The position numbers and the translations under genes are program-made. A stretch of 64,000 nucleotides of DNA from Candidatus Yanofskybacteria bacterium (GTDB lineage Bacteria; Patescibacteriota; Minisyncoccia; 2-02-FULL-40-12; IGHO2-01-FULL-4-A), in the NCBI GenBank assembly GCA_016181175.1, contig JACOZV010000001.1, positions 259,519 to 323,518 on the forward strand. The letters are read 5' to 3'. Below the pieces are notes generated by a model, which was not told where the DNA came from, ran no database searches, and was given only the letters and a program-made list of their open reading frames with translations. Shown here one piece after another: positions 242 to 15,290 of this stretch (its first letter is position 1; each line of letters begins with the position of its first letter).

Positions 242-249
242 TATAAAAA

Positions 250-283
250 CCCGCTGTAAAACGGGTTCTTTTTTTTGGCTAGA
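250..283. terminator. bidirectional rho-independent terminator between convergent genes
   Basis: aacccgctgtaaaacgggtt hairpin followed by T-run. Confidence 0.6.
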
Positions 284-284
284 C

Positions 285-872
285 TTATTCGTCCAAATAT
301 TTATGTATTTGGGTAAGACATACTTCCTGTGGTTGCGAAGTATCTACGGCTAAATGTTCAAGCGCTGGCTTTCCTCCGCATCTTGCGTATCTTGCTTTGA
401 ACATATAATAGTCTTCTGGCCGTATCGGAGCTGCTTGGGTATCTTTTAATCTTTCATCTGATCTTTTTTTGATTTCTAGTTCATTGTCGTTAGTAATTTG
501 GCACCATATTATTTTTAGTTTTACTGAATACGATTCAGCTATTTGCTTAAGACGATCTTCCATGGTACCGACATGCCATTTTTTGGTAAGTGACGGCATT
601 TCCACGATCAGCGGCACATTATGGCCCGCACTATTTTTAATCGTTTCAAAGAGTTTATCATATGCTTGGGCGGTTTTCTGGTTTTCTATCGCTTCTTTTT
701 CTTGATTAGTCCAATCTTTTGGTGCCGATAAAACCGGTCCGAATAGTTTTTTCCTTATTTTGTCTAGATTGATAAAAGGAATGCCTGTTTCTTGGGCTAT
801 TATTTTGGCGAGAGTTGTTTTACCCGAAAGCTGGACTCCGAGAAAAATGATTAGTTTTGTCTGCACTGTCAT
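285..872 (-). CDS. P-loop NTPase / AAA-type kinase family protein
   Basis: Walker A GVQLSGKTTLA near N-terminus; 195 aa. Confidence 0.55.
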   Translation of the reverse strand: MTVQTKLIIFLGVQLSGKTTLAKIIAQETGIPFINLDKIRKKLFGPVLSAPKDWTNQEKEAIENQKTAQAYDKLFETIKNSAGHNVPLIVEMPSLTKKWHVGTMEDRLKQIAESYSVKLKIIWCQITNDNELEIKKRSDERLKDTQAAPIRPEDYYMFKARYARCGGKPALEHLAVDTSQPQEVCLTQIHKYLDE

Positions 873-878
873 CTCCCG

Positions 879-2090
879 TCAGATAAAATTAACATTCTTA
901 GGTAAGGAATCCGGTTGGAACGTTTCTTGTACATTTTCCGGTCCTGATTGGCGTTTCGTTTCCAAATCCCAGAGGGCTTCATTTACAAAATGCATCCTGC
1001 AATTTTTGCGGCAGGCCGAAATGTCAAAGTTTTTCATAAATTCAATGTGCTGGCGACGGCGTTCTCCCCACCAAATTTCTTTGAAGGTCTTATCTGTAAT
1101 GTTGCCGAGGTCAAAATCCGGGTTGCTGTTGTGGGCGGCACAGCTGATTATCATACCGTCCGATTGTAGATATGCCCACGACATGGGTGTAGCCAGACAT
1201 TTTTCGTATTCCCGTTTCGGCTTTTCATAGCTTAGTATTGTATTCCACCTGAAAACAACTTTAAAATTTGCATCATTCAGTTTTTGCAGTTCACCATCCA
1301 TTTTTTCAAATTCCTTCAGGAAGCCGGTATATTTCATGTCCCCATATCTTTGCATGGTTCCCAAGCTATAGGGATTTTGGCCGTATGGTTTAATCACTAC
1401 ATGATCTAACCCTGTTTCTTTGGCTTTTTTTGCCAAGTCAATAGCTTCATGCCAGTTGGCCGGCACAACCGTGCCGTCTAAATCTAGCGTGTCATTTACC
1501 AGAAGCACTGTTTGACAGCCGATTTCGCACGAATATCCGAATTTTGTTCTCATTTCTACCGCTTTTCCGAGATTGCGCCAGATTGTATCCCAATGATTGG
1601 GTCCAGCTTTGTGTATTTTTGTGTAAGTCTCTTTTTTACCGGCGTTAACGCTGGCCTTAATCCAGCTTAGGTGCGGTAGGGCGGGGTCAAGAAATTTTTC
1701 AGTTAAACCGGTGGCGTTGGTAGTGAGAGCGCTTTCAATGCCGCATCTGGCAGTTTCTGCGATAACTTCGGCCAGGTCTTTGTAGAGTGTAGGTTCACCT
1801 TCGCCCGCGTGCATTAAGCTTCTTACGCCCAAACCATCAGGGTCTTGAGATCTCAACCATGCCAGTTCTCGGATAAACCCAATCAGCCTCTCTTTAGGAA
1901 TACTTCTGTCGGGATAGCCCATTACTTCCTTGGCGCAGAAGGTACAGCGATGATTACAAAGACCAATGGGGGATATTTCGATATAAATTGGTGGCGTTGA
2001 AAAAGGATTATCTAACCATCGTTTCAACCAAGCTGGGTGATATGAAATTTTTTGACTATCAAATTGGGTGTCAATTCGTGGAGTTTCCAT
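879..2090 (-). CDS. radical SAM protein with C-terminal SPASM-like Cys-rich domain
   Basis: CNHRCTFC (CxxxCxxC) cluster; C-terminal extra cysteines (CAAHN...CRKNCRMHF). Confidence 0.75.
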   Translation of the reverse strand: METPRIDTQFDSQKISYHPAWLKRWLDNPFSTPPIYIEISPIGLCNHRCTFCAKEVMGYPDRSIPKERLIGFIRELAWLRSQDPDGLGVRSLMHAGEGEPTLYKDLAEVIAETARCGIESALTTNATGLTEKFLDPALPHLSWIKASVNAGKKETYTKIHKAGPNHWDTIWRNLGKAVEMRTKFGYSCEIGCQTVLLVNDTLDLDGTVVPANWHEAIDLAKKAKETGLDHVVIKPYGQNPYSLGTMQRYGDMKYTGFLKEFEKMDGELQKLNDANFKVVFRWNTILSYEKPKREYEKCLATPMSWAYLQSDGMIISCAAHNSNPDFDLGNITDKTFKEIWWGERRRQHIEFMKNFDISACRKNCRMHFVNEALWDLETKRQSGPENVQETFQPDSLPKNVNFI

Positions 2091-2216
2091 TGTGTTTCCT
2101 GTATTTTTTGTGAAATAGCTTTTGTGAGTTTATAACAATCTTGACGTATTGGCAATATACCACTTTTGTGATATTGACTTAGACAAGTTCGTTGACAAAT
2201 AATTCAGGAAAATCAT

Positions 2217-2966
2217 ATGGCCGTTTCTGTGAGCGTGGTGATGCCCGCTCACAAAGAAGCGGGCAATTTAGAGGGTGCGGTCGGGTATGTCACCGACAAC
2301 ATGAATATTTTTATCCAAAACGGGAAAGTCGTGGACTGGGAAATTATAATTGTTGATTCTCTTGAACCGGATGGTTCAAGTGATGGCACGCCAGAGCTTG
2401 CCGATAAGTTGGCAAGGCAAAATCAGCATATACGCGTTATCCACAATCAGGCCTTCGTCAATTTAGGTTTTAAATATAAGCAGGGATTAGCCATGGCGCG
2501 ATTTGGTTACTTTATGATGGTGCCTGGTAAAAATACTTTGCACGGCGATTCTTTGAAAAACCTTTTCGGTTGCCTGGAACATGCTGATGTCGTCATTGGC
2601 TATCAAGCCGATATGAGCCGCCGGCCATTTGGACGACGCCTGATTTCCAAAACATTTACCGTGTTCATGAATTTAATTTTTGGTTTGCGCCTTCGTTATT
2701 ACAATGGCACGACGATTATCCCGACCCAAATACTACGCGAGCTTAATCCCGATGCCGACGACTTTGCTTACATGGCCGAAATTTTGGTGATGCTTTTGAA
2801 AAAATACCGTCTGTCCTATGCAGAAGCGCCATTTTATACCCGCGGCCGCCGTAAATACGGTCGAACCAATGCCACAAGAATTGATAATGTTATAAGCGTT
2901 GCCAAGACCGTGCTTAAACTCATAAAAAAAGTCTATTTTTCTGGCAGGATGGGTAGAAATGTTTAA
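2217..2966 (+). CDS. family 2 glycosyltransferase (dolichyl/polyprenyl-phosphate sugar transferase-like)
   Basis: N-terminal VSVVMPAHKE GT-A fold start, internal DxD-like region; paralogue of 10634..11368. Confidence 0.75.
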   Translation: MAVSVSVVMPAHKEAGNLEGAVGYVTDNMNIFIQNGKVVDWEIIIVDSLEPDGSSDGTPELADKLARQNQHIRVIHNQAFVNLGFKYKQGLAMARFGYFMMVPGKNTLHGDSLKNLFGCLEHADVVIGYQADMSRRPFGRRLISKTFTVFMNLIFGLRLRYYNGTTIIPTQILRELNPDADDFAYMAEILVMLLKKYRLSYAEAPFYTRGRRKYGRTNATRIDNVISVAKTVLKLIKKVYFSGRMGRNV

Positions 2967-3495
2967 ATCAATGCTTCGTGAAGCGGTTGTGCGCTTGAAA
3001 CATTTTATTCCCTGGCTGTCGTATGAAGACAGATTCAGATTTTACGAGGTAGAAGCGGGCAAGTTATACCGTTCATCTCAACCCGCACCTGAAGCGTTGT
3101 CTTATTTCTTCAAAAAATATGGCATAAATTCCATTATTATTTTGTTAAAACATGCCGAGGATTGGGAATTTGATTGGGCTTTGTCTCACGATCTTGCCGT
3201 TTTGCAAATTCCCATATCAGGCCGCGCTCCTAGCGACGATGAAATAAACAAATTCATTGAATTTGTTTCCTGTAAGTCTAACCAGCCAGTTTTAATTCAC
3301 TGCGTTCATGGCAGGGATCGCACCGGCTGCCTCTGTTTTTTATACAGAGTTGAAGTGATGGGCTGGGATGCCAAAGATGCCTGGCGCGAGATGAAGAAGC
3401 TGGGCTATTGCAGTTTGCCATGGCACTTTCGAGAGCAAACGCAAATAAATATCACAAGGTGGTTGGAAAATAGATATAGAGTTCAGCTCAAATAG
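2959..3495 (+). CDS. protein-tyrosine/dual-specificity phosphatase
   Basis: HCVHGRDRTG = C(X)5R P-loop signature. Confidence 0.75.
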   Translation: MFKSMLREAVVRLKHFIPWLSYEDRFRFYEVEAGKLYRSSQPAPEALSYFFKKYGINSIIILLKHAEDWEFDWALSHDLAVLQIPISGRAPSDDEINKFIEFVSCKSNQPVLIHCVHGRDRTGCLCFLYRVEVMGWDAKDAWREMKKLGYCSLPWHFREQTQINITRWLENRYRVQLK

Positions 3496-3544
3496 TGCGC
3501 ATTGACGCACTTTTTTCTTGACAAAATACACGCTTGATTTGTTG

Positions 3545-3580
3545 CCCCGGCGTGTTATATTAGCACCAAATGTTATTTAA
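3545..3580 (+). promoter_or_regulatory. candidate sigma70-type promoter (TTGATT N16 TGnTATATT) upstream of TPP-enzyme gene
   Basis: cttgatttgttgccccggcgtgttatattag with extended -10. Confidence 0.35.
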
Positions 3581-3597
3581 TAATTTGAGGAGGGCCA

Positions 3598-5439
3598 ATG
3601 AAACTCTCGGATTACGTGATTCATTTTTTGGCCGATTTGGGCTTGAAACATGTTTTTGTGCTGACGGGCGGTTATGCCGTTAATCTGATTGACTCATTCC
3701 ACAAAGAACCGAGATTGAAACATATCTGTGTTAATCATGAACAGGTTGGGGCCATGGCGGCCGAGGCCTACTCTCGTTTTGCCGGTTTTGGCGCTATGAT
3801 CAGCACTAATGCGCCGGGGGCACTGAATCTGCTTAATGGCATAGATGGCGCGTGGAATGATTCTATTCCCTGTATTTTTATCTGTGGGCAGGTAGTTAGG
3901 GAGAGATGGAACCGCAGCAAAGACGTTACTTCACATGGCCGCGAGATTGTAGATATGGTTACCATTGCCGGTTCGGTTACCAAGTATGCCCAATATGTGG
4001 AAGACCCGGAGAATATAAAATATTATATGGAGACAGCCGTTTCTATTGCCAACGAAGGCAGACCGGGACCGGTGCTCCTTGAGATTCCTTTGGATGTGCA
4101 AAAAGCAAATGTTGAGCCGGAAAAACTGGTTGGTTTTAATCCGGATCCGGATGCGCATTTAAGATTGCAAAAAGTTGGACCGCAAAACCAAGACAAGATT
4201 TCCACTAAAATTACAGAAGCTCTGGCAATGATTAAAGAAGCCAAACGTCCAGTTGTTTTGCTGGGCGGCGGGTTAAGACTATCAGGCACAATTGAACAGG
4301 CGCGAATATTTATTGAATCTCTCGGCATTCCAACTGTTGCCACTTGGGCCGCTTTTGACAATATGCCGCATAACCATCCGCTTTATCTGGGCAATATTGG
4401 CAGTTACGGGAACAGGCGGGCTAATTTTACCGTTCAAAACGCAGATTTGGTTATTGCTCTTGGAGCGCGCTTAAATGTCAGACAAACCGGCGGCAGTCCG
4501 AACACATTCGCGCGAGACGCTAAAAAAATCATGGTTGATATTGATGAATTTGAGCTGGCAAGGGCGAGAGTCAAAGTTGACCTGCCAATCAAATGCGATT
4601 TGCGTGACTTCTTTGACCTTTTGTTCGGTCAAAACAAATATCTCCCAAAGCTTAATATTGACTGTTGGCGCAATCAAACAACGACTTACAAAATCTTATA
4701 CACGGAAGTTTTACCTGAATATTATAAGCAAAAAAATTCTGTTAACGTTTATGTTTTTTTAAAAACACTTTCTAATATGATAGATGCTTCTGTTCCGGCA
4801 GTTACGGACTGCGGCGGAAACCTTATCTGGACAATGCAGGCCTTTGAGGTAAAAGATGGCCAAAGAGTTTTTTCTAATATGGGTTTGTCGTCCATGGGCT
4901 ATTCGCTTGCCGCGAGCATCGGTGTTTGCCTTGCCAACGACAAAAAACCAACTGTTTGTATAATCGGAGACGGGGGATTCCAGGTTCACATACAAGAATT
5001 GGAAACTATTAAGCGGTTGGGGCTGCCGATTAAAGTTTTTGTTTTGAACAACCACAGCTACGGAATCATTAAGCAGACAATTGAGTCGTGGTTTGGTATT
5101 GCAAGCACGGAAGAGCTTGAAAAAAGATGTTTGGCTGTATCATCGCGCGACGGTTATAGTTGTCCTGATTTTTTAAAAGTTGCCCGGGCTTATGGCATTG
5201 CCAATCTTAGGATCGGTAGTCATGCCGAAATGGAATCAGGAATAAGAGAAGCTTTGGATTATAATGGTCCAATCGTTTGTGATGTGGTGCTGGATGAACA
5301 TCAAAAAATCACTCCGCGGCTGGAATTCGGCAATCCGCTTGAAGACCAGCATCCGCTGTTGCCAAGGGAAGAATTAAAAAAGGTTATGCTAATTGATGTT
5401 TTGAAAAATAATGAAGAAGAGTGGATGCAGGGGATATAA
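3598..5439 (+). CDS. thiamine-pyrophosphate enzyme of acetolactate-synthase/sulfoacetaldehyde-acetyltransferase family
   Basis: 613 aa; TPP-binding GDGGFQ...(27 aa)...NN motif; three-domain length. Confidence 0.8.
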   Translation: MKLSDYVIHFLADLGLKHVFVLTGGYAVNLIDSFHKEPRLKHICVNHEQVGAMAAEAYSRFAGFGAMISTNAPGALNLLNGIDGAWNDSIPCIFICGQVVRERWNRSKDVTSHGREIVDMVTIAGSVTKYAQYVEDPENIKYYMETAVSIANEGRPGPVLLEIPLDVQKANVEPEKLVGFNPDPDAHLRLQKVGPQNQDKISTKITEALAMIKEAKRPVVLLGGGLRLSGTIEQARIFIESLGIPTVATWAAFDNMPHNHPLYLGNIGSYGNRRANFTVQNADLVIALGARLNVRQTGGSPNTFARDAKKIMVDIDEFELARARVKVDLPIKCDLRDFFDLLFGQNKYLPKLNIDCWRNQTTTYKILYTEVLPEYYKQKNSVNVYVFLKTLSNMIDASVPAVTDCGGNLIWTMQAFEVKDGQRVFSNMGLSSMGYSLAASIGVCLANDKKPTVCIIGDGGFQVHIQELETIKRLGLPIKVFVLNNHSYGIIKQTIESWFGIASTEELEKRCLAVSSRDGYSCPDFLKVARAYGIANLRIGSHAEMESGIREALDYNGPIVCDVVLDEHQKITPRLEFGNPLEDQHPLLPREELKKVMLIDVLKNNEEEWMQGI

Positions 5440-5448
5440 ATACTTTAG

Positions 5449-5485
5449 ACGCCTCACAATAGTGAGGCTTTTTATTTTTTTAAAA
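5449..5485 (+). terminator. rho-independent terminator
   Basis: gcctcacaatagtgaggc hairpin + T-run directly after stop. Confidence 0.7.
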
Positions 5486-5512
5486 TATAATACTATTCCA
5501 TTAAAAACCCCC

Positions 5513-5670
5513 GCTCGCCATAGAACCTTTTGGGAATTTCGAAAACCTCCAGCGAGGTTTTCTCATCTTTTGTGATTGCCGCCATTTGTCAAGACACTCA
5601 CTTCGTTCGGTCATTGACAAAACCGTGCTGGCGGCAACCCCAGAAGTCCCAAAAGGCACTATGGCTCGCT
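5513..5670. repeat. divergent member of the family-1 terminal-inverted-repeat element (contains ccagcgag box)
   Basis: ends ctcgccatagaacctttt / aaaaggcactatggctcgct; shared ccagcgag box. Confidence 0.4.
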
Positions 5671-5831
5671 AAATTTTTGAAATAATAGATATCGCTAGAG
5701 ATCCTTTCGTGATTTCTTAAAAGTGTCTTTGGTATCGGCTTGGGGTTTGTAATTTTTGCACCCTTGACACATCGCAAATTCATATGCTAACCTATTACAA
5801 TATTAGTAACTTTAAAAATCGGGGGTTTTAA

Positions 5832-6212
5832 ATGTTAGAGCAAGCAGCCGAAGGTAACTTACTAATTGAAAGAAAGCCAATTGAGGTCTTGCTTTCAAAA
5901 ATAGAGAAATTAAAAAAGAGCAAAGAAAAAGAAGTAGCCGATTCGCTAAAAGCAGTAAAGAGAAGATTTCTCATGTGTATTTTTTGGTATACAGGTAAGG
6001 AGTATTCTTTAGATTACTTATGTATGGAATATTCTTCTGGTCTTTCGCGCCAAGAAATAATAATACAAGAAGTAATAATAGATGTACTTAGAAAATTTTC
6101 AGATCAAGAACTAGTAACTTTAGCGACCCATCTAATCCAGGAATCCGTCAAAAGGACGGATTACATTAAAAAAACCGGAAAAAGGTGTTGGTATTGTCGT
6201 TATTTACGCTAG
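5832..6212 (+). CDS. hypothetical protein
   Basis: 126-aa ORF, no recognisable motif. Confidence 0.35.
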   Translation: MLEQAAEGNLLIERKPIEVLLSKIEKLKKSKEKEVADSLKAVKRRFLMCIFWYTGKEYSLDYLCMEYSSGLSRQEIIIQEVIIDVLRKFSDQELVTLATHLIQESVKRTDYIKKTGKRCWYCRYLR

Positions 6213-6420
6213 GAATATATTGGTGCTACCTTACTCGGAATTTTGTTTATAGTTTTGGTTTAATAATTAGCAATTTGGACAAATTCAATGTTACTCCCCT
6301 CCAAGTACTAGAGGAATTTCTAAACGAGTAGCGTAAAAAACTAGAGTGAGATAGAGTTGTAACAGTGTCTTGACTTGAAAAGAAAAATTATTTACCGCCA
6401 TTGCTGGCGGTTTTGTTTTT

Positions 6421-6837
6421 TCAAAACAAATACAAAAATAAAATTGCGCCGGTGAAGTTTAATGCAAGGTCAAATAAACCATCCTTCCATTCGTAATTCA
6501 CGCTTTTAAGTCTGAATTTACTTTTTATGTATCTTGAAAGCGTCGGAGCAGACGCAATCAAAAACTCCGCCGATTCCCACAAAATGCTGATGATACCAAG
6601 ACTTATTAAAATCAAACTGACGGAGCTGAAAAAACTTGAGAAAAACATAGCTACAAAAAACCCGCCCAAAAAATGCAATGTCTGGAAAAACCAGTAATGC
6701 CGAACACCAAAACCGTAGTACATTCCCACAACCAAATTGAGAACAAAAATACCCAATAGTATGGCAACCGATGCCATCATCGTGGCAAGATTTATGTTTT
6801 CCATATTTTTATTATACAAGAATACGAGCTTTCTCAA
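6421..6837 (-). CDS. hypothetical membrane protein
   Basis: 138 aa, several hydrophobic helices. Confidence 0.45.
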   Translation of the reverse strand: MRKLVFLYNKNMENINLATMMASVAILLGIFVLNLVVGMYYGFGVRHYWFFQTLHFLGGFFVAMFFSSFFSSVSLILISLGIISILWESAEFLIASAPTLSRYIKSKFRLKSVNYEWKDGLFDLALNFTGAILFLYLF

Positions 6838-6907
6838 AAATTACAAACCAAGCTCACCCTCTGATTTTCTTACAACGTCATGCCTTTCTGCAAATTTTCC
6901 TCACCGT

Positions 6908-6989
6908 GCTATTGTTCCTGGCAATTTGCGGTTATCCATTCCCCCTTCGTCTTCTGACTCCGGGGCCCGCAAATTGCCAGCGGAACAAT
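6908..6989. repeat. 22-bp inverted repeat with 35-bp spacer in divergent intergenic region
   Basis: ctattgttcctggcaatttgcgg ... ccgcaaattgccagcggaacaata. Confidence 0.6.
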
Positions 6990-7125
6990 AAACGCCCGGT
7001 TCGTTAATTTACTAGTCGGCAGACGAATGACGAAAATCAAGAGGTTTCGCTTGCCTTTGGTTTGTAATTTTTTAGCGAACCATTGTGCCTTTTGTGATTT
7101 TTGTGGATAGCAAAATGGAAAAGCG

Positions 7126-7334
7126 AGGCCATTATGCCTCATAGCACCGTCAAAAGAGTGGATTGTCCCGATTCTGCTTTGCAGAATCGAGGATCCTCGA
7201 TTTTCATGAATGAAAATCGGGACATGGTTTGCGAGCAGTATAATATTTCCTCACTGCGAGCAAAATCCACGCTTTTGACGGAATGTAGAATTCTCGCTGG
7301 GAATTCAAATGGTGATAGGAGGTATAATGGCGAG
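7126..7334 (-). repeat. family-1 TIR/stem element, copy with internal palindromic insertion, followed by tandem partial duplication (7328-7387)
   Basis: reverse complement of 28019-28168 over both ends (ccattatgcctc..tcacc..ccagcgag..ccgtcaaaag.gtggatt). Confidence 0.7.
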
Positions 7335-7462
7335 CTAGTTTTTGAAATTACCAAAAGGCACTATGGCGAGCTGGTTTTTGAATTTGATAAAAATAGTGAT
7401 TCGTGCTATTTTCAATAACAAGTTTTTTAAAAATTAAATTATAGCCGGAGAGGAGGTGGAAT

Positions 7463-9124
7463 ATGGCCGACAAAATTCTTTTTGTTGTAAATAACGTTGA
7501 TTACATTGACCCGATGGGAGTGATGCTAATGTCGGCCTTGGCCAAACGGGAGGGATTCGCGACATTTCTAACCGTTTTAAGTCAGGACGACTTGGGCGAG
7601 GAATTGAAGCGTATTAAACCGGATATAGTCGCGCATTGCAGTGTCAAAACCGGCGAACAACAGTTTTTTCTAAAAGCCAACGACAAAATAAAGGATTATT
7701 CAAAAAGCATCGTTACGATAATGGGCGGTCCTCACCCGACCTTCAACCCTGACATTATTGAAGAAAGCCTAATTGATGCCGTTGGTATGGGCGAATGCGA
7801 TGTTGCCTGGCCCAAACTCCTTAAGGCGTTACGGGACAGAGAAGACACAAGCAACATACCAAATATCTTTACCAGAGATTCCTGGCTTTCTAAATGGAAA
7901 AATGAAACTGAAGCAAATCGTAATCGTTTTAGACACAAATTGACCCACCCTTTGGATGGCCTGCCTTTTTATGACAGAGAGATTGTTTACAGTAAAACTC
8001 ATCTTGGCAAATTTCCAATGCGCTGTTTTATGAGTTCCTGGGGCTGTCCGTTTGAATGCACCTATTGTTTTGAGCCAAAAACGAATGCCCAACAGCGCGG
8101 TCTGGGTCCGATATATAGGAGATACTCTCCAAGACGATTATGCGCCGAACTTAAAGAATTAAAAAATAGATATTCCACCCAGTTCATTAAGTTTTATGAT
8201 GATATGTTCGTTTTGAGCCGGAGCGTTGATCCTTGGCTTGCCGAATTTGCCGAAATTTACCCTCAAGAAGTCGGCTTGCCGTTTTTCTGCTTAACGCGAT
8301 GTAATGTTTTGACCAGAGAGAATCTTACCGTCCTCAAGAAGGCCGGCCTTCATTCAATAACAATGTCCATTGAGTCAGGTAATGATTATATCAGAGAAAA
8401 AGTTATAAAACGCCATATGACTCGGCCTGAAATTGAAGAGGCCTTTGCGCTTTGCAATGAAATGGGCGTAAAAACTTTTGCTAATTCAATTTTGGCTATT
8501 CCGGTAAAAAAGGAAATAATGGCCGAACAAGATAAAACCCCGATTGATTACGATTTTGATTCCCTGGAATTGAATCTCAAATCAAGAGTTACTTTTGGAG
8601 AATTTTCGCCGGTATATCCCTACCCAGGCTGTGAGCTTTCAGAATATGTAGTGGAAAACGGCTGGTTTGACTATACTGACTTTGGAAAACTTCACGCGAG
8701 TTATCAAAACGAGAGTCCGTTAAATTGTTTTACCCCACTGGAAAAAAGAATGCAAAGCAACATGTCGTTGCTGGGAACGGTATTTCTCGCTTTCCCGTTC
8801 TTATATTCCAGGAAATTTGCCGAATTTCTGTTCAAACTGCCGCTGGCAAAACTTTATTTTATTTTATACTTTTTCGTTAAGGGTTATCTAAATGTTTTCA
8901 AAATATATCCGATGAAATTTTCAGTTGTTAGCCTTTTGTTAAATATCCGCAGAAGCATAGCGTTAGAGTACAAGAAACATGCTCCCGGCGAGCGTATTTA
9001 TGAATCCAAGAGGACCATGTCTCAAGCGACTACGCCCATGCTTGGCGGTTTGCCGCAAGGCGGACTGATACCTCCACCGCCAAAGCCAAAAAAGAAAGAC
9101 GACATTTTTAAGATAATTGATTAA
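7463..9124 (+). CDS. B12-binding-domain radical SAM protein (class B)
   Basis: N-terminal B12-binding-like region; CPFECTYC (CxxxCxxC). Confidence 0.75.
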   Translation: MADKILFVVNNVDYIDPMGVMLMSALAKREGFATFLTVLSQDDLGEELKRIKPDIVAHCSVKTGEQQFFLKANDKIKDYSKSIVTIMGGPHPTFNPDIIEESLIDAVGMGECDVAWPKLLKALRDREDTSNIPNIFTRDSWLSKWKNETEANRNRFRHKLTHPLDGLPFYDREIVYSKTHLGKFPMRCFMSSWGCPFECTYCFEPKTNAQQRGLGPIYRRYSPRRLCAELKELKNRYSTQFIKFYDDMFVLSRSVDPWLAEFAEIYPQEVGLPFFCLTRCNVLTRENLTVLKKAGLHSITMSIESGNDYIREKVIKRHMTRPEIEEAFALCNEMGVKTFANSILAIPVKKEIMAEQDKTPIDYDFDSLELNLKSRVTFGEFSPVYPYPGCELSEYVVENGWFDYTDFGKLHASYQNESPLNCFTPLEKRMQSNMSLLGTVFLAFPFLYSRKFAEFLFKLPLAKLYFILYFFVKGYLNVFKIYPMKFSVVSLLLNIRRSIALEYKKHAPGERIYESKRTMSQATTPMLGGLPQGGLIPPPPKPKKKDDIFKIID

Positions 9125-9160
9125 ACAAAGACCCAGATCGGGTCTTTTAATTTAGCAAGG

Positions 9161-9475
9161 GGGTTGACCCCGCACCTTTTCAGCACAATAATCACAGCAT
9201 GCACTGGTTATACATAATTAAAAGTAAGGAAAATGGAGAATTATATATCGGCAGCACAGGAAATTTAGTGAAAAGACTGGCCGAACATAATACTGGCAAA
9301 TCTAGAGCTACGACCAGATATAAACCATGGTTTTTTGTTTATATTGAAGGCTATTTTTCTAAGGATGATGCCTTGCATCGCGAACGGAATCTGAAATACT
9401 TTGGCAAAGTCTATGCCCAATTAAAAAGACGTATTAAAAATAGCCTTCAGGGTGCTGAAAAGGTGCGGGGTTGAC
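9161..9475 (+). mobile_element. family-2 inverted-repeat element enclosing a GIY-YIG nuclease ORF
   Basis: ggttgaccccgcaccttttcagcac ... gtgctgaaaaggtgcggggttgac flank the ORF exactly. Confidence 0.6.
9199..9474 (+). CDS. GIY-YIG nuclease family protein (YhbQ/UPF0213-like)
   Basis: 91 aa; YIGSTGNL...RLAEHN GIY-YIG core. Confidence 0.75.
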   Translation: MHWLYIIKSKENGELYIGSTGNLVKRLAEHNTGKSRATTRYKPWFFVYIEGYFSKDDALHRERNLKYFGKVYAQLKRRIKNSLQGAEKVRG

Positions 9476-9548
9476 TTTGTATTCCATTTTGATTTACTGG
9501 TTATAAATATCAAGGTTCTTTTAAATAAAATAAAAAAGGAGACAAATT

Positions 9549-10472
9549 GTGTCTGACGAAAAAAATGCCATTCCTCTCCAATCGAAAATCAAGCGGGTGA
9601 CCATTAAAACCTTGCATGACATGAAGAAAAAAAGACCGGAGCCGGAAATTATTTGTGCTTTGAGCATCTATGATTCTTTACATGCCCGGCTATTTGACAG
9701 GGCTGGCGGAGATATGATTATTGTCGGCGATTCTGTAGGTATGACTTTGCAGGGTAGAGCTAACACCCTGCCGGTAACAATGGATGAAATGGTTATGTTT
9801 ACCCAAGCTGTAAGAAGGGGCACGGATAGATTATTTGTTGTTGGTGATATGCCCTTGGGTTCGTATGAGGTTTCAAACGAAGAAGCGGTGCGTAATGCTT
9901 TGCGCTTTGTCAAAGAAGCGGGTTGTAACGCAGTGAAGGTGGAAACCAATCTTGATTACATTGACCGCATCAGAGTTATTGCCAGCGCCTGTTTGGTGGT
10001 GGCGCATATCGGTTTAAATCCCAACAAAGCCGAGATGCTTGGAGGTTACAGGACGCAAGGTAAGACAAGAGAAAGCTTTTTGGAATTAAGCAAGGTAATT
10101 GTTGAAGCTGAAAAAGCGGGTGCCTGTATAATTTTAATAGAATCGGTTACGGAAGAAATAGCCGAAATGCTAAAGTCCAAAGTTAATATTCCAGTATTTG
10201 GCATTGCCGCCGGTCGCAAGCTTGATGGCCAGCTTGTCATCAGTTCTGATTTACTTGGATTTTTCGAATGGCCGGGCAACCCCCCGATTCACTTTGAAAA
10301 ATATCTTACAGAAAGACAGGGCATTACGATCGGTGATGTTACCCTGGATGCTTTTCGCTGGTATGTCAAAGCCGTAAAGGAAAAAAGATTTCCAAGCGAC
10401 AAACATGTCCATCACATTTCAGCCGACGAGTTAAGTCAAGTGTTACAAACCAATAACAATTCATCAGCCTAA
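9549..10472 (+). CDS. panB: 3-methyl-2-oxobutanoate hydroxymethyltransferase (PanB)-like protein with C-terminal extension
   Basis: IVGDSVGMTLQG and VVGDMPLGSYE match PanB hallmark GDSLGM / DMPFGSY. Confidence 0.65.
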   Translation: MSDEKNAIPLQSKIKRVTIKTLHDMKKKRPEPEIICALSIYDSLHARLFDRAGGDMIIVGDSVGMTLQGRANTLPVTMDEMVMFTQAVRRGTDRLFVVGDMPLGSYEVSNEEAVRNALRFVKEAGCNAVKVETNLDYIDRIRVIASACLVVAHIGLNPNKAEMLGGYRTQGKTRESFLELSKVIVEAEKAGACIILIESVTEEIAEMLKSKVNIPVFGIAAGRKLDGQLVISSDLLGFFEWPGNPPIHFEKYLTERQGITIGDVTLDAFRWYVKAVKEKRFPSDKHVHHISADELSQVLQTNNNSSA

Positions 10473-10473
10473 G

Positions 10474-10498
10474 ACCGTCTTAACGGTCTTTATTTTTA
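10474..10498 (+). terminator. rho-independent terminator
   Basis: gaccgtcttaacggtc hairpin + T-run. Confidence 0.6.
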
Positions 10499-10592
10499 GC
10501 CGTGCGATTGATTTTCAGAGAATATTGTGTTATTCAATATGCAGAAAACGAGAACTTTAAAAACGTTATCATCTACCACAAGAAGGGGGATT

Positions 10593-10637
10593 ATGCTATT
10601 TATTAGAATGAAACACAAACAGCGATGGAAAAAATGA
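10593..10637 (+). CDS. 14-codon upstream leader ORF (MLFIRMKHKQRWKK) with strong SD, stop overlapping GT2 start (ATGA)
   Basis: aagaagggggatt-ATG; TGA at 10635-10637 overlaps ATG 10634. Confidence 0.3.
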   Translation: MLFIRMKHKQRWKK

Positions 10638-11368
10638 AACCAACATTAACCGTAATAATGCCGGCCTACAATGAGCTTAAAAATCTTAGGGGGGCTTTTA
10701 TAAGCGCAACCGGGGCCCTTAAAATAGCCGGTATTTCTGATTACGAAATAATAATCATAACCAACACGAAGCGTGATGGTAGCCACGACGGTACGCCGTA
10801 TGTTGCCGAACAAATCGTGAAGGAAGATTCCAGGGTTAGGCATATTCATAACAACTCTTACGTGGGCTTGGGTTTTAAATTTAGACAAGGCATTGGAGAT
10901 GCCCGGAAGAGCTTCATAACTTGGGTGCCGGGCGATAATGAAAATATTGAGGAGTCCGTTGCCGGCATCTTCAGACATATCGGCGAAGCCGATATGATTA
11001 CCAGTTATACTTCCAACACTCAAGTCAGGAAATGGAAAAGACGTTTTGTGTCCAGATGTTTTACTGAGTTTTGTAATTTGCTGTTTGGTTTGAGATTGAA
11101 GTATTACAACGGTATTTGTATTTATCCGACGAAACTACTCCAAAAAGTGCCGACGAAGTCCGATAATTTTGCATACATGGCCGAGATTATTATTTACTTG
11201 GTCAAATCCGGAGTTAGATACAAAGAGGTTCCAATGGAAATCAAACCCACTGCAATCTCATCTTCCTTTAAGTTAAAAAGTGTTTTTGAAGCTTTGGGCA
11301 CTATCGCTTTGTTATTTTGGAATATTCATTTTAAGAGGACAAGGATTAAAATTGGTTCAATAAATTAA
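10634..11368 (+). CDS. family 2 glycosyltransferase (paralogue of 2217..2966)
   Basis: LTVIMPAYNE, YNGICIYP, FAYMAEII conserved with 2217 ORF; start chosen at ATGA-coupled ATG (alternative 10625). Confidence 0.75.
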   Translation: MKPTLTVIMPAYNELKNLRGAFISATGALKIAGISDYEIIIITNTKRDGSHDGTPYVAEQIVKEDSRVRHIHNNSYVGLGFKFRQGIGDARKSFITWVPGDNENIEESVAGIFRHIGEADMITSYTSNTQVRKWKRRFVSRCFTEFCNLLFGLRLKYYNGICIYPTKLLQKVPTKSDNFAYMAEIIIYLVKSGVRYKEVPMEIKPTAISSSFKLKSVFEALGTIALLFWNIHFKRTRIKIGSIN

Positions 11369-11431
11369 ATTCAATCGGATTATATCCGATTTTTTATTGT
11401 GAAATAATTTTGCATGTGCTAAGTTGAACTT

Positions 11432-12322
11432 ATGAATTGTATTATTTGCGGCGGAACTTCCCCGCGTTTTTTTAGGGAAAAAGATGGCTGGCAGTTAGTC
11501 GAATGTCCCAATGACGGGCTTATTTACGTTGATCCGCAGCCAACCGTGGAACAATTAACGGAATTTTATAATTCGGGAAAGTACTTTCATTCTGATGATC
11601 ATGGGGTGGGGTATAAAGATTATATCCGAGAAAAATTTTTTATAAACCTCGGGCATAAGCCAATACTTCGCAAGATTTCAAAATATTTTTCAAAGCTGAA
11701 TAAAAAAGAAGGAGCTCCACGCAAATTATTGGATGTCGGTGCCGCATATGGTTTTTTCGTTGAGTTGGCTTCAAAGTACGGGTTTGAAGCTATGGGAAAC
11801 GACATAACGCGGGAAGCGGTGGATTATGCAAAGAGCCGCAATGTAAACGTGGTTTTGGGCAAAACCAAAGAGCTTAATTTTCCGGACGGTTCTTTTGATG
11901 TTGTGACAGTTTTGGGGGTTATTGAGCATTGGTATGATCCCAAGGAAGAGTTATCGGAAATACGAAGAATTCTCAAAGTGGGGGGTCTACTAGTTGTTTT
12001 AACATTGGATACCGGAAACTTTTTAGGGAGAGGTGCGGTTAAAGTGCCGGAACACGTATTCTATTTTTCAAAAAGAAACCTAATCAGGTTTTTATCAGAT
12101 TGCGGTTTTAAAACCATTAAAACTTCAATCAACTGTACCTTTTTCAGTGTTGAAGAATTCTTCTTCCATTTATTTGGGCGTTTTTTCAAAAACGATAGTT
12201 TTGGTTGGTTGGAAAAACTCTTAGTCGGTTTGGCTCAAAAAACTCGTTTAGACAAAGTTCCTTTGCCGGTAATAGACGGCCAGATTCTTTTTATATGCCG
12301 AAAAGAAGGTAGTGCAAAATAA
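11432..12322 (+). CDS. class I SAM-dependent methyltransferase with N-terminal Zn-ribbon
   Basis: CIICGG...C...C ribbon; motif I LLDVGAAYGFF. Confidence 0.7.
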   Translation: MNCIICGGTSPRFFREKDGWQLVECPNDGLIYVDPQPTVEQLTEFYNSGKYFHSDDHGVGYKDYIREKFFINLGHKPILRKISKYFSKLNKKEGAPRKLLDVGAAYGFFVELASKYGFEAMGNDITREAVDYAKSRNVNVVLGKTKELNFPDGSFDVVTVLGVIEHWYDPKEELSEIRRILKVGGLLVVLTLDTGNFLGRGAVKVPEHVFYFSKRNLIRFLSDCGFKTIKTSINCTFFSVEEFFFHLFGRFFKNDSFGWLEKLLVGLAQKTRLDKVPLPVIDGQILFICRKEGSAK

Positions 12323-12401
12323 TCCTCTTTGATTTGACCTTATTTTAGTAATGGTTTATCTTGTTTGGGTGAAAGTTCTTTTATAAAGAAGAGGATAATT
12401 T

Positions 12402-12764
12402 ATGTCGGTTGAAATAAAAAACTTAGACGGAGAAGTTGTTTTTGTTTTTCCCGGTGATTCGTTGGTTGAAGCCAATTTGAGCAATAACAAAAACTTGGGT
12501 CGGGCCGATTTTCGCGGCCAAGACATGAGAAATGTTAACCTTGGTGGCGCTCATTGCCGCGGAGCTGACTTTTCCGGTGCGGATATGTCCGGCCAGAAAA
12601 CCTGCCTAGTTTATGCGCAGTGCCAAGATGCCAAGTTTGTCGGTACCAATCTTGAAGGAGCAGACATGGAAAGAATAAACATATGCGGGGCTGACCTGAC
12701 TGGCGCCAGAAAAAATGGCGCCAGAACATCATATTGGCACTGGGATGAAGATACGAAATTTTAG
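12402..12764 (+). CDS. pentapeptide-repeat protein
   Basis: tandem A(D/N)(L/F)xG repeats. Confidence 0.65.
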   Translation: MSVEIKNLDGEVVFVFPGDSLVEANLSNNKNLGRADFRGQDMRNVNLGGAHCRGADFSGADMSGQKTCLVYAQCQDAKFVGTNLEGADMERINICGADLTGARKNGARTSYWHWDEDTKF

Positions 12765-12769
12765 GGAGG

Positions 12770-13345
12770 GTGAAGAGAATGATAAAAATTCTGCACCGCC
12801 ATACAAGAGAATTGCTTTTTGTTTATCCTCGTGACACGTTTATCGGCCAAGACCTGCGGGGTTTCAATCTGGAGTTTGCAGACTTAAGCGGACAAGATTT
12901 AACAGAAGCAATTATGGAAGGCATGAATCTTGATGAAACCGAATTTTCTTATGCGACCTTGATTGGAGCCAAGATGGCTCGCTGTAGCTTAAGGGAAGCA
13001 ATTTTTGATAGTACCGACCTAACAGAAGCGAAACTGGATAATTGTAAATTTTCAATGACGGCCTTTGTACGAGCTGTTCTTACTCGAGCTGATTTTTCTG
13101 GTTCAGATTTTGAGGGGGTAACAAATTTTACGTACGCGATTGCTATTGGTACGAAGTTTAGGAATATTAAAAAAATTGGTTCACCAATTTTTGAAAATAT
13201 AGACTGTGGTGGCGCCGATTTTACGGGTACTGATTTAACGGTAATTTCGGAAGGCGATATTTTGGACGCAAACTTTGAGGGTGCCGTACTGGACCCGGCA
13301 TCAAAAGAATATTTGGAAAAAATTTTACGGAAGGAGATAAAATGA
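12770..13345 (+). CDS. pentapeptide-repeat protein
   Basis: ADLSGQDLTEA-type repeats. Confidence 0.65.
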   Translation: MKRMIKILHRHTRELLFVYPRDTFIGQDLRGFNLEFADLSGQDLTEAIMEGMNLDETEFSYATLIGAKMARCSLREAIFDSTDLTEAKLDNCKFSMTAFVRAVLTRADFSGSDFEGVTNFTYAIAIGTKFRNIKKIGSPIFENIDCGGADFTGTDLTVISEGDILDANFEGAVLDPASKEYLEKILRKEIK

Positions 13346-13539
13346 CCGATTCACCGTCCCCGCTTTGCGAAAACCATAAAGATACGCCCAAGCTAGAAGA
13401 TTCGGTAAAAATAAAATGCCGTATGTGTTCAACGGGTGATCCCGATTCACTTCGTGATTCATTTTATGAGGATGCCCAGCTTTGTCAGGAATGTCATGAC
13501 AACACGCAGTTCTGTATTATCTGCCAAGAACCCATCTAA
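13342..13539 (+). CDS. small Cys-rich zinc-ribbon protein
   Basis: CxxC...CxxC...CxxC; ATGA overlap with upstream gene. Confidence 0.45.
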   Translation: MTDSPSPLCENHKDTPKLEDSVKIKCRMCSTGDPDSLRDSFYEDAQLCQECHDNTQFCIICQEPI

Positions 13540-13540
13540 A

Positions 13541-13618
13541 TAGGACTTACGCGCATAGTCCTATGTAGGTCCAAATTAAAAACCCTAGCTTAATCTAATT
13601 AGCTAGGGTGTTTTTGTG
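13541..13618. terminator. pair of hairpins (palindrome ataggacttacgcgcatagtcctat; ccctagc..gctaggg + T-run) between convergent genes
   Basis: perfect palindromes followed by T-run. Confidence 0.55.
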
Positions 13619-13619
13619 T

Positions 13620-15290
13620 TTAAACAACGTCTTTAGGCTTTTCTTTGGAGTCAATTTGATCCTTTTGATGTTTGGCGGCTTCTTTCATGCCGGCCCGGAT
13701 ATTATCTAAAGGACTCGCGGGAAAAAGGCGCGGGAAAAAGGTTTTGGCGGCATAGCCCACATTTCTTAAGAACGAACCGTCGCCAATAGATTTTTTTATT
13801 TTCCAGAAAGCGTATCCGGGATTGTGAAGCGGTGAGTAAAATTCGCGATAAAACTTATTATACCAAGCCCGTAAAACTTCGGGTGTTAACTCTGGGTTGG
13901 GATGGCGGAACATGCCTTCTGCCCGATGAATATTATACAGGTCCCAACGTTCACTTAGAATTAATCCGGCTCGTTTCCAATCTTTGAATGCTCGAGTATC
14001 GGGAAAGGGAGTAAATATTGTCGCCTTGGCGAAATCTGGCCGCAACTTTTTGGCAAAATCAATAGTTTTTTGCATTGACCTTGGAGTGTCCTTAGGCGCT
14101 CCGATCATGAAAAAACCGATGGTCTCGACATTAAATTCTTTTAGCAATTTCATACATTCAATGGATTTATCTAGACTTAATGATTTTTGAATAGAATCCA
14201 GCGCGTCTTGGTCGCCTGATTCAAAGCCGGCGCCAAGAGAGTAAAGTCCGGTGCGGGTAGCTAGATCTAAGAATTCTCTGTCTATTCGGTCGGCCCGGAC
14301 TCCATTACCTAGATTTATCGCAAAATGGAGGCCGTGCTCTAACATTTTTTGATGAATGATTTTACCTCTTTTCACGTTGGTTAAATACTGATCGTCGGTA
14401 ATTCTTAATTCTTTGATATTTCTGAATTTGAAATACTTCATCAGTTCAATAACCTTATCCGGACTGAATACCCGATACGCATCTTCGGCTGAACAAAAAT
14501 TGCAATGAAATGGGCAACCGCGGCTGGTCTCAAAACCAATCCAGGGGTGTTCGTGAGCAAGAAGTCTTGGCATTTTGTAAAGATAGTAGGGATACAAGTC
14601 CAAATCCAATGGTGGCAGGTCATCCATTGTCAGAAATTTCCTGGGCGGGGTTTCTAGAACCTCCAATTTAACACTTTGTTCGGGCGGGTACATTGCGTCC
14701 AGAGCAACATAATAAGCAAGCTCGCCAGTCGAGAGGCGACGAATTATTTCATCAGTTGTTGTTTTGATGCTCCGATCATCTTCGCCAGTTCGATAAAATA
14801 CACCCCTAACATCCTTAATTGGCATACCAGAGCAGATATCAGCTAAAGTAGCCTCGCCTTCACCCTTAACGACAACATCGCACAGCGTCTCGCTAAGAGC
14901 TTCACTGGCCAAATTAGATGCGTGAACTCCGCCATGAATCAAAACTAATTCCGGACCCAAAACTTCTTTGGCGATAATGCCGGCTAATTTTGTACTAAAA
15001 AATGATGGCGTTACTACCATTAAGCCCAAATATTTAGGACGTTCCTCAAGCAGAAATCTCTTATAAGTGTGCCAAGCTAATTCTAGCTCAATTATGCCCA
15101 TATCTATCACGCAAGTCTTAAAACCCTTAAGATTAAGTTTTAGATAAGCCGATAACCATTGATAGGCCTGAATTGGAAACACCTGGGTCGCTGCATTAAT
15201 ACGGGTTCCAGTATAAGCGGTAAATATCTCTGGCATAACCGCAAAAGCGATTTTACGTTCATCCAGAACCGGATAGTTCTTTTTATTCAT
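13620..15290 (-). CDS. B12-binding-domain radical SAM protein (class B)
   Basis: SRGCPFHCNFC cluster; 556 aa. Confidence 0.75.
   Translation of the reverse strand: MNKKNYPVLDERKIAFAVMPEIFTAYTGTRINAATQVFPIQAYQWLSAYLKLNLKGFKTCVIDMGIIELELAWHTYKRFLLEERPKYLGLMVVTPSFFSTKLAGIIAKEVLGPELVLIHGGVHASNLASEALSETLCDVVVKGEGEATLADICSGMPIKDVRGVFYRTGEDDRSIKTTTDEIIRRLSTGELAYYVALDAMYPPEQSVKLEVLETPPRKFLTMDDLPPLDLDLYPYYLYKMPRLLAHEHPWIGFETSRGCPFHCNFCSAEDAYRVFSPDKVIELMKYFKFRNIKELRITDDQYLTNVKRGKIIHQKMLEHGLHFAINLGNGVRADRIDREFLDLATRTGLYSLGAGFESGDQDALDSIQKSLSLDKSIECMKLLKEFNVETIGFFMIGAPKDTPRSMQKTIDFAKKLRPDFAKATIFTPFPDTRAFKDWKRAGLILSERWDLYNIHRAEGMFRHPNPELTPEVLRAWYNKFYREFYSPLHNPGYAFWKIKKSIGDGSFLRNVGYAAKTFFPRLFPASPLDNIRAGMKEAAKHQKDQIDSKEKPKDVV

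Follow-up and report, generated by a model that had tools for sequence, protein, structure and literature searches.

A candidate envelope glycan locus for a carbon-branched, probably heptose-derived sugar in a Candidatus Yanofskybacteria genome

Candidatus Yanofskybacteria belong to the Parcubacteria lineage of the candidate phyla radiation (CPR). In the genome of one groundwater member of this group, a window of 64,000 nt (assembly GCA_016181175.1, contig JACOZV010000001.1, positions 259,519 to 323,518) carries glycan-related genes in nearly continuous order from its left edge to at least 27.5 kb, and probably to 32.4 kb, according to the open reading frame (ORF) listing and the Pfam and NCBIfam scans on which the gene assignments are based. 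A thiamine diphosphate (ThDP) enzyme, three radical S-adenosylmethionine (SAM) enzymes and a PanB-like protein are encoded among them. We consider it probable, short of confident, that this envelope glycan locus serves the synthesis and export of a sugar that is carbon-branched, probably derived from heptose, and tailored by radical SAM enzymes. The best-supported modification is an acyl or hydroxyalkyl carbon branch on that sugar, C-methylation being a possible extra.

A first-pass annotation had been centered on positions 879-15290 and had suggested an unusual surface sugar, C-methylated or otherwise modified. A modified sugar is still the likely product, with the carbon branch better supported than the methyl group, and the locus proves larger, reaching from a PfkB-family kinase fragment at 2-241 to at least about 27.5 kb. 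This kinase gene is cut by the window edge and the locus extends leftward past the window. Positions refer to the window, L-numbers to the loci or contigs compared and P-numbers to homologous proteins. The two B12-type radical SAM enzymes are designated B12rSAM1 (7463-9124) and B12rSAM2 (13620-15290); the features are collected in Table 1.

A predicted YerE-like carboligase

The ThDP enzyme (3598-5439) combines the three-domain N/M/C architecture of thiamine pyrophosphate (TPP) enzymes with a GDG...NN ThDP motif. Its best PDB sequence matches are 8rph, the structure of JanthE (325 bits), and 5ahk (313 bits), which we take to be PpYerE, whereas any true acetohydroxyacid synthase (AHAS) reaches 245 bits at most. 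The protein also falls below all AHAS equivalog cut-offs of NCBIfam (356.6 vs 538.35 bits for TIGR00118). JanthE is a YerE-like ThDP enzyme coupling 2-oxo acids to ketones (PMC12188165, PMC12247030), and enzymes of this kind put acyl branches on deoxy-keto sugars of lipopolysaccharide (LPS) such as yersiniose, erwiniose and caryophyllose (PMC12247030, PMC9306805, PMC4753412). Its gene belongs to a sugar cluster that also encodes glycosyltransferases and enzymes forming keto-sugars. Judged by its sequence, the protein is a YerE-like, ketone-accepting, sugar-branching carboligase, closer to YerE-like enzymes than to acetolactate synthases, with carboligation as the predicted activity. Its YerE-like nature had been missed in the first-pass annotation, which listed a TPP enzyme.

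Linkage of B12rSAM1 to ThDP enzymes

Eighty-five loci around B12rSAM1 homologs, taken from one-genome-per-species contigs and from metagenome contexts, were scored with the proteins of the window and with annotated neighbors. Homologs of at least 35% identity to B12rSAM1 were treated as orthologs and those of lower identity as paralogs, and the ThDP counts cover only loci flanked by 5 kb or more. A ThDP enzyme lies within 6 kb of B12rSAM1 in 12 of 20 ortholog loci vs none of 39 paralog loci; within 10 kb, the ortholog count rises to 16 of 20, the paralog loci having been counted at 6 kb only. Within the same 6 kb, a glycosyltransferase of family 2 (GT2) of about 240 aa is found in 17 of 26 ortholog vs 5 of 65 paralog loci, a radical SAM-SPASM enzyme in 12 of 26 vs 1 of 65, and a SIS or HldE protein in 9 of 26 vs 0 of 65.

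Two types of ThDP enzyme take part in this linkage. Parcubacteria-type contigs have the YerE-like type, and so do the DPANN archaea Woesearchaeota and Pacearchaeota (L015, L017). Rokubacteria, Elusimicrobia, Deltaproteobacteria and Nitrospirae (L004/5, L088, L007-L010, L012) have instead a stand-alone E1 alpha/beta pair, assigned from Pfam domains only; this pair stands directly upstream of the B12rSAM1 ortholog in several of these loci, and in L088 the genes share their boundary base. Sugar C-branching has a second known solution in the E1 alpha/beta (alpha-KADH2) enzymes (PMC12247030), and both types branch keto-sugars (PMC12247030, PMC4753412). Because two ThDP types doing the same job adjoin one radical SAM ortholog, the context evidence is strong that B12rSAM1 acts in a ThDP-dependent sugar-branching pathway. 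This linkage across phyla defines an enzyme pair.

Homologs of the small membrane protein 27042-27527 directly follow B12rSAM1 in other phyla (L004, L007, L008 and L009; 32-37% identity by tblastn). In a Brocadiales contig (L087), the B12rSAM1 ortholog comes after an NTP_transferase and a short-chain dehydrogenase/reductase (SDR) dehydratase and has no ThDP enzyme nearby; upstream of it (1-5829), five more radical SAM genes succeed one another.

Conservation of the locus in other genomes

The sister Yanofskybacteria genome GCA_016185545.1 (L127) shares 13 genes with the window in near-identical order. Twelve of them have 72-92% protein identity (the TM138 homolog, B12rSAM1, PanB, both pentapeptide proteins, the Cys-rich ORF, B12rSAM2, MT11, the 834-aa protein, MT23, the GSU2086-family protein and the flippase-like protein), and the thirteenth is a swapped GT2 of 43% identity. 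A Wzy_C/TPR gene follows this block and a TPP enzyme gene stands at the edge of the locus. Two Parcubacteria-type contigs (L089 and L001) hold AAA_33, radical SAM-SPASM, GT2, TPP, PanB, B12rSAM1 and SIS genes, mostly at 55-69% identity, with AAA_33 and SIS at about 40%. In L089 the shared block is preceded by YfhO, a methyltransferase and an additional B12 radical SAM gene, and is followed by HldE, SDR, a GMD-like gene, YdjC, GT2 and PMT. Four further loci (L002/3, L086, L090 and L091) combine TPP, several B12 radical SAM genes, GT2 and HldE with HAD, cupin and DJ-1 genes; the radical SAM-SPASM gene is present in all of them except L091, the SIS gene in L002/3 and L086 and not in L090 or L091, and Rieske genes in L002/3 and L086. 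Their flanks carry SDR enzymes, GT1/GT9 transferases and PMT-like proteins in varying combinations. Parts of the block also occur in DPANN archaea, Elusimicrobia, Rokubacteria, Nitrospirae and Deltaproteobacteria.

Since the same genes recur together in other genomes, their clustering is not due to chance. The first-pass annotation had called the region a glycan locus and had pointed to recurrence in relatives as one way to check it; the conserved block was indeed found (L127, L089, L001, L002/3, L086, L090, L091), and the related genomes, too, link their radical SAM genes with those for glycans and sugar nucleotides rather than separating them.

A Paceibacterota contig (L128, 11554-12922) carries a diversity-generating retroelement, made of a bAvd accessory protein and a reverse transcriptase, inside a radical SAM/heptose cluster.

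Chemistry of the B12-type radical SAM enzymes

Both enzymes had been described as B12-binding in the first-pass annotation. The PF02310 match of B12rSAM1 (33.8 bits) lies just above the threshold of 32.1, and that of B12rSAM2 (22.6 bits) remains below it. The CX3CX2C motif is formed by C195, C199 and C202 in B12rSAM1, invariant in 18 homologs, and by C259, C263 and C266 in B12rSAM2. For both proteins the best PDB sequence match is AprD4, the radical SAM 1,2-diol dehydratase of apramycin. Over the fold, the identity to AprD4 is only about 14%, and the methylase MgmA scores equally well. AprD4 has the same N-terminal fold and is not known to use cobalamin; B12rSAM1 differs from it in having about 100 additional, helical residues toward the C-terminus and a tail that is disordered. 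If the chemistry were a dehydration as in AprD4, the product would be a deoxy-keto sugar, the kind of acceptor that the ThDP enzyme requires. For the B12-type enzymes, C-methylation of the sugar or of its branch and non-methylase chemistry are possible in equal measure.

A bolder proposal, which we advance tentatively and with the balance against it, is that the module of ThDP carboligase, small GT2, B12-type and twitch-type radical SAM enzymes makes an undescribed branched, higher-carbon or carbocyclic heptose derivative. The B12-type chemistry would here be non-methylating and act on a nucleotide-heptose, by dehydration to the keto acceptor, ring contraction or cyclization onto the ThDP-installed branch, and the product would be displayed at the surface of ultra-small episymbionts, namely CPR bacteria and DPANN archaea, and of other uncultivated anaerobes.

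Cobalamin-dependent radical SAM C-methylases of sugars do exist, GenK and GenD1 being examples, and the first-pass annotation had taken the two B12-type enzymes for class B C-methyltransferases. In this reading they would methylate unactivated carbons of a surface sugar, and the TPP and PanB genes would be incidental. We hold this to be rather unlikely, and the methyltransferase assignment was not established: against the curated methylase families the two proteins score 28-78 bits where the cut-offs are 280-750, their best match in sequence and structure is a diol dehydratase, and HpnJ and BchE, their top NCBIfam families although far below cut-off, are not methylases. Nor is the TPP gene incidental, since it is the most consistent neighbor of B12rSAM1 across phyla.

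HpnJ itself points to another reading, in which the target would be a membrane lipid head group or a glycolipid, not a polysaccharide or glycoprotein, modified in the way that HpnI (GT2), HpnK (YdjC) and HpnJ (B12 radical SAM) turn a glycosylated hopanoid into a cyclitol ether. Orthologs of B12rSAM1 have a small GT2 and a small membrane protein as neighbors, a YdjC gene belongs to the L089 cluster and a flippase-like LPG_synthase_TM protein is encoded in the locus, all of which would fit. We nevertheless find it improbable. The HpnJ scores of the two enzymes (78 and 132 bits) are far from the cut-off of 577.6, genes for hopanoid or lipid synthesis are missing, and the GT2s and radical SAM enzymes have no predicted transmembrane (TM) segments; the strong links to ThDP carboligase, SIS/HldE, NDP-sugar dehydratase and aminotransferase genes point instead to nucleotide-sugar chemistry.

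The SPASM-type enzyme and the small-protein module

The third radical SAM enzyme (879-2090) had been annotated as a SPASM protein. A PF13186 match of 35.1 bits agrees with this; besides CX3CX2C, however, only C298, C317, C360 and C364 are conserved C-terminally in 13 homologs, which is less than the seven-Cys motif for two clusters. The four cysteines suggest a single, twitch-like auxiliary cluster. The family is large (1810 proteins at E <= 1e-30) and includes a homolog in the cultured Malaciobacter molluscorum. In P0298 and P0330, an N-terminal RfaE-domain-II-like heptose-1-phosphate adenylyltransferase domain is fused to the radical SAM-SPASM part. The AAA_33 kinase, whose gene adjoins the SPASM-type gene in L001 as it does here, is fused to a GT2 domain in L089 (3619-4905). 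These fusions tie the enzymes to nucleotide-sugar metabolism, and the RfaE-II-like fusions together with the SIS/HldE neighbors point to a nucleotide-heptose as substrate. Structurally, the model is closest to BlsE, the cytosylglucuronate decarboxylase, and DesII, the TDP-4-amino-4,6-dideoxyglucose deaminase, at 17% identity and with the peptide maturases SkfB and SuiB scoring nearly as high. The enzyme probably acts on a nucleotide-sugar. Radical chemistry on nucleotide-heptoses, for which no description was found in the searchable literature, would be added to the known repertoire by these fusions.

B12rSAM2 and the two pentapeptide proteins form a separate conserved module in four genomes: the window, L127, L002/3 and L128. 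The identity of B12rSAM2 is 83% in L127, 57% in L002 and 53% in L128, and the pentapeptide pair is convergent to it in all of them. Between the pentapeptide genes and B12rSAM2 lies a Cys-rich ORF of 65 aa, with 72% identity in L127 and a homolog in L128, that may encode a zinc-ribbon or electron-carrier protein.

The locus could also be read as a cluster for a ribosomally synthesized and post-translationally modified peptide (RiPP) or a small-molecule antibiotic, with the radical SAM enzymes as peptide maturases, the 65-aa ORF as precursor and the pentapeptide proteins as self-resistance. Such a reading is very improbable. Pfam detects no RiPP recognition element (RRE) in the SPASM-type enzyme, whose radical SAM core begins at about residue 40 and whose neighbors are a kinase and a GT2; its cysteines provide for one auxiliary cluster, and its homologs are fused to a heptose adenylyltransferase-like domain. 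Conservation of the 65-aa ORF extends from end to end, as in a folded zinc-ribbon protein, and in L002 the second pentapeptide gene (PRP2) and B12rSAM2 stand too close for it to fit between them. Protease, transporter and leader-peptide features are lacking, and all genomes examined have glycan assembly genes on the flanks of the locus.

A PanB-like enzyme as candidate donor supplier

The gene 9549-10472, omitted from the first-pass gene list, encodes a clear member of the PanB family (PF02548, 257 bits; TIGR00222, 217 bits vs the cut-off of 207.55; NF001452, 253.8 bits, below the cut-off of 272), and PDB structures of PanB match it at E 1e-39 to 1e-43. It adjoins the TPP gene in L001 and L089. 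Close relatives (55-71% identity; L095, L096, L099 and L100) stand beside genes for YerE-like TPP enzymes, SDR, GT4, aminotransferases and methyltransferases, and none of these neighbors accompanies PanB homologs of 41% identity or less. In L099, PanB adjoins a translationally coupled SDR-TPP pair resembling YerF/YerE. According to the scheme proposed for long-branched sugars, a cluster-encoded aldolase makes the gamma-hydroxy-2-oxo acid donor for the YerE-like enzyme (PMC9306805). PanB chemistry transfers a hydroxymethyl group onto a 2-oxo acid, and its product is exactly of that donor class. We infer that PanB has been co-opted as donor supplier, a proposal that would extend the unifying scheme of YerE.

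It is hard to credit that the TPP and PanB proteins are an ordinary acetolactate synthase and ketopantoate hydroxymethyltransferase, serving valine and pantothenate synthesis and placed in a glycan region by chance: the full-length, strong AHAS matches (356 bits) and the TIGR00222 score would suit such roles, but the TPP protein stays below every AHAS equivalog cut-off and closer to YerE-like enzymes, IlvN, IlvC, IlvD, PanC, PanD and PanE were not found in the Pfam and NCBIfam scans of the window, and TPP and PanB recur in the same sugar cluster in L001, L089, L127, L095, L096 and L099.

A phosphonate pathway, combining a PEP-mutase-like protein, a TPP decarboxylase and a P-methylase, was also considered and dropped, 9549-10472 being clearly of the PanB family and the TPP enzyme a three-domain, AHAS-like protein.

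Proposed pathway

Apart from the family assignments, all steps of the route proposed below are drawn from context and similarity. A nucleotide-activated heptose would be made first, for which the GmhA-like SIS protein, the PfkB and AAA_33 kinases, the PTP-like phosphatase and the RfaE-II-like nucleotidyltransferase are candidates; a GDP-hexose may serve instead or in addition. The GMD-like 4,6-dehydratase, the radical SAM enzymes, or both would then provide the keto-sugar acceptor. In a third step the YerE-like carboligase would decarboxylate a 2-oxo acid and add the acyl group to the keto carbon, creating the C-branch; the PanB-like enzyme may give the gamma-hydroxy-2-oxo acid donor, the role that falls to aldolases in the clusters for erwiniose and caryophyllose. 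The sugar or its branch could then be tailored by two SAM methyltransferases and by the B12-type radical SAM enzymes, the latter through C-methylation, dehydration or rearrangement. Finally, the GT2s, the flippase-like protein, the YfhO-like GT-C protein, the Wzy_C/TPR protein and Bac_transf would assemble the glycan and place it on the envelope.

Several genes bear on the identity of the sugar. The gmhA families are the best matches of the SIS protein (82-83 bits vs cut-offs of at least 209), whose gene directly adjoins B12rSAM1 in L001, L002, L086 and L089. Full PfkB+CTP_transf fusions of the HldE-like kind stand beside the cluster in relatives. The GMD-like protein, a candidate source of 4-keto-6-deoxy sugar, reaches 366 bits for TIGR01472 vs a cut-off of 415, and in L002 and L089 its homologs of 51-52% identity have HldE and SIS as neighbors. 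The RfaE-II-like nucleotidyltransferase may belong to the pathway even though housekeeping genes separate it from the other genes.

Assembly on the cell envelope is indicated by the flippase-like, Wzy_C/TPR, Bac_transf and 834-aa membrane proteins. The last of these (15423-17927) is predicted to cross the membrane many times within its first 520 residues and has a C-terminal soluble domain. Its YfhO match (PF09586) is sub-threshold (15.9 vs 28.5 bits) and aligns colinearly to the profile's C-terminus; its positional counterparts in L089 and L128 have PF09586 matches, and the identity is 31% to the one in L128 and 82% in L127.

Several observations weigh against the branched-sugar reading. The PanB-like protein just passes the TIGR00222 equivalog cut-off, which is compatible with an ordinary PanB role, and no clear YerF-type reductase is found beside the TPP gene in the window. 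Four of the 20 ortholog loci (L087 and L006 among them) have no ThDP enzyme within 10 kb of B12rSAM1. On the heptose side, the window holds no complete HldE; none of the GmhA-like, GMD-like and RfaE-II-like proteins reaches its curated cut-off, which leaves the identity of the sugar uncertain; and about 11 kb separate the RfaE-II-like gene from the 27.5-kb mark, with MurB and SecA in between. The proposal gives no role to the pentapeptide proteins, the Cys-rich peptide or the GSU2086-family protein, and all carriers of the locus seen in context are uncultivated.

Comparison with known systems

The closest known systems are the YerE-type clusters for yersiniose (YerE/YerF), erwiniose (ErwE/F/I/J) and caryophyllose (MMAR_2331-2333). 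As in the present locus, an AHAS-like ThDP enzyme occurs there with keto-sugar-forming SDR enzymes, glycosyltransferases, methyltransferases and a maker of gamma-hydroxy-2-oxo acid, and the product is destined for the envelope (PMC12247030, PMC9306805). Those clusters, however, use CDP-3,6-dideoxy-4-keto-hexose formed via E1/E3-type enzymes and pyruvate aldolases for the donor, whereas in the Yanofskybacteria locus a PanB-like protein stands in for the aldolase, the precursor genes are of the heptose type (SIS, HldE) and three radical SAM enzymes are encoded in addition. They are, moreover, clusters for LPS or lipooligosaccharide, and the host here is a CPR bacterium without LPS. The accessible papers on YerE-type clusters mention no radical SAM genes, and no description of a ThDP branching enzyme combined with radical SAM enzymes was found in the searchable literature, a coverage outside which the survey of YerE-like clusters by Krug et al. 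(2024) falls.

The known E1 alpha/beta branching enzymes are those of avilamycin (AviB1/B2), aldgamycin and kibdelomycin (KbDH). They resemble the stand-alone pairs that the B12rSAM1 ortholog directly follows in sugar clusters of Rokubacteria, Elusimicrobia, Deltaproteobacteria and Nitrospirae, but belong to secondary-metabolite clusters of actinomycetes and not to envelope glycan loci; the window itself uses the YerE-like type.

Extracytoplasmic glycosylation can operate with three components, as in GtrA/GtrB/Gtr and CsbB/GtcA/YfhO. The locus likewise brings together a GT2, a flippase-like membrane protein and a YfhO-like GT-C protein; unlike GtrB and CsbB, its GT2s have no C-terminal TM helices, and the YfhO assignment is sub-threshold.

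Bacteria of the CPR get by with minimal genomes and spend their lives attached to hosts. The expense of about 30 kb for one elaborate surface sugar implies that the glycan matters biologically, with attachment, host recognition and phage evasion as possible roles.

Gene inventory and neighboring features

The Pfam and NCBIfam scans confirm the three radical SAM genes, two GT2s, TPP enzyme, PTP-like phosphatase and pentapeptide proteins reported for 879-15290 by the first-pass annotation, as well as the GMD-like, GmhA-like, epimerase and cytidylyltransferase-like genes noted further along. The count of two SAM methyltransferases needs correction: one gene (11432-12322) lies in that interval and the other (18148-18930) outside it. 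The PTP/DSP-like phosphatase is replaced by HAD phosphatases in relatives, and a homolog of the GSU2086-family protein adjoins E1 alpha/beta in L091.

Table 1. Features of the glycan locus and its surroundings in the window.
Position	Strand	Feature	Basis and remarks
2-241	+	PfkB-family sugar kinase, C-terminal 79 aa, HldE kinase-domain-like	DTVGAGDA motif; tblastn with L127 HldE-like protein, E 3e-16; cut by window edge
285-872	-	AAA_33 P-loop kinase	Pfam
879-2090	-	Radical SAM enzyme with partial SPASM domain (twitch-like)	Pfam
2217-2966	+	Soluble GT2 glycosyltransferase GT2a	Pfam; no TM segment predicted; 61-67% identity in L001 and L089
2959-3495	+	PTP/DSP-like phosphatase	Pfam; start overlaps GT2a end
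3598-5439	+	YerE-like ThDP-dependent carboligase (predicted), three-domain TPP enzyme	Pfam N/M/C domains
5440-7462		Gene-poor interval of about 2 kb without enzyme gene	ORF listing
6421-6837	-	DUF2238-like membrane ORF inside the gene-poor interval	
7463-9124	+	B12-binding-domain radical SAM enzyme 1 (B12rSAM1)	Pfam B12-binding and Radical_SAM
9549-10472	+	PanB-like 2-oxoacid hydroxymethyltransferase	Pfam, 257 bits
10625-11368	+	Soluble GT2 glycosyltransferase GT2b	Pfam; type found near B12rSAM1 in most ortholog loci
11432-12322	+	Class I SAM methyltransferase	Pfam; identity 83% in L127, 38% in L001 and L089
12402-12764 and 12770-13345	+	Two pentapeptide-repeat proteins	Pfam
13342-13539	+	65-aa Cys-rich small protein, three CxxC	Start overlaps PRP2 stop codon, translationally coupled
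13620-15290	-	B12-like radical SAM enzyme 2 (B12rSAM2)	Pfam Radical_SAM; sub-threshold B12-binding match
15423-17927	+	834-aa polytopic membrane protein, candidate YfhO-like GT-C glycosyltransferase	
18148-18930	+	Second class I SAM methyltransferase	Pfam; 90% identity in L127
18958-20064	+	GSU2086-family protein	NF052581, 334 bits; 85% identity in L127
20212-20796	+	SpoT-like (SpoT/RelA-type) HD hydrolase domain protein	
21808-22428	-	SIS-domain protein, candidate GmhA-like sedoheptulose-7-phosphate isomerase	
22690-23652	+	Flippase-like membrane protein (LPG_synthase_TM)	81% identity in L127; also in L086
23659-25956	+	Wzy_C (O-antigen ligase/polymerase-like) membrane protein with TPR repeats	Same gene follows in L127
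25970-26968	-	GMD-like NDP-sugar 4,6-dehydratase	Pfam, 375 bits
27042-27527	+	Small membrane protein	Weak YdjM match
28950-30335	-	Bac_transf initiating phosphoglycosyl transferase	Pfam
30392-32369	+	NDP-sugar dehydrogenase (apparently truncated) and SDR epimerase/dehydratase (31350-32369)	
39190-39720	+	RfaE-domain-II-like (cytidylyltransferase-like) nucleotidyltransferase	TIGR02199 best match, 74 bits vs 181.5 cut-off

The gene-poor interval 5440-7462 contains short direct and inverted repeats at 5505-5546, 5644-5692, 7071-7106 and 7320-7394. At the equivalent place, the sister genome L127 holds an rve-type insertion sequence (IS) integrase, a GmhB-like HAD gene, DUF2238 and small ORFs. Because of the integrase, the GmhB-like gene and the small ORFs found there, the interval looks like a decayed insertion or a rearrangement hot spot. 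Rfam searches of the whole window and, with a permissive threshold, of 5400-7500 returned only a tRNA at 52489-52561 and one chance-level sRNA match, and no cobalamin or SAM riboswitch was detected upstream of the radical SAM gene.

Two genes of the glycan region stand apart. The SpoT/RelA-type HD protein (20212-20796) is possibly a small alarmone hydrolase, and L127 has an HldE-like gene in its place. The NDP-sugar dehydrogenase (30392-31345) is 317 aa long, matches its profile from about position 70 and has no match for the C-terminal domain; it may be truncated or a pseudogene.

The remainder of the window is occupied by housekeeping genes, among them MurB, SecA, SecDF, UvrB, FemAB and a Pup-ligase family gene. 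Downstream of the glycan region (41526-43689 and 49140-50828) lie two PD-(D/E)XK/Cas4-like nucleases, one of them fused to RNase_H_2, and a TrwB/TraG-like coupling ATPase. Further on, an ARC/Mpa-like AAA ATPase (57880-59703) and the Pup-ligase family protein (59763-61445), followed by an overlapping ORF of 504 aa (to 62956), represent a pupylation-type system in a CPR genome.

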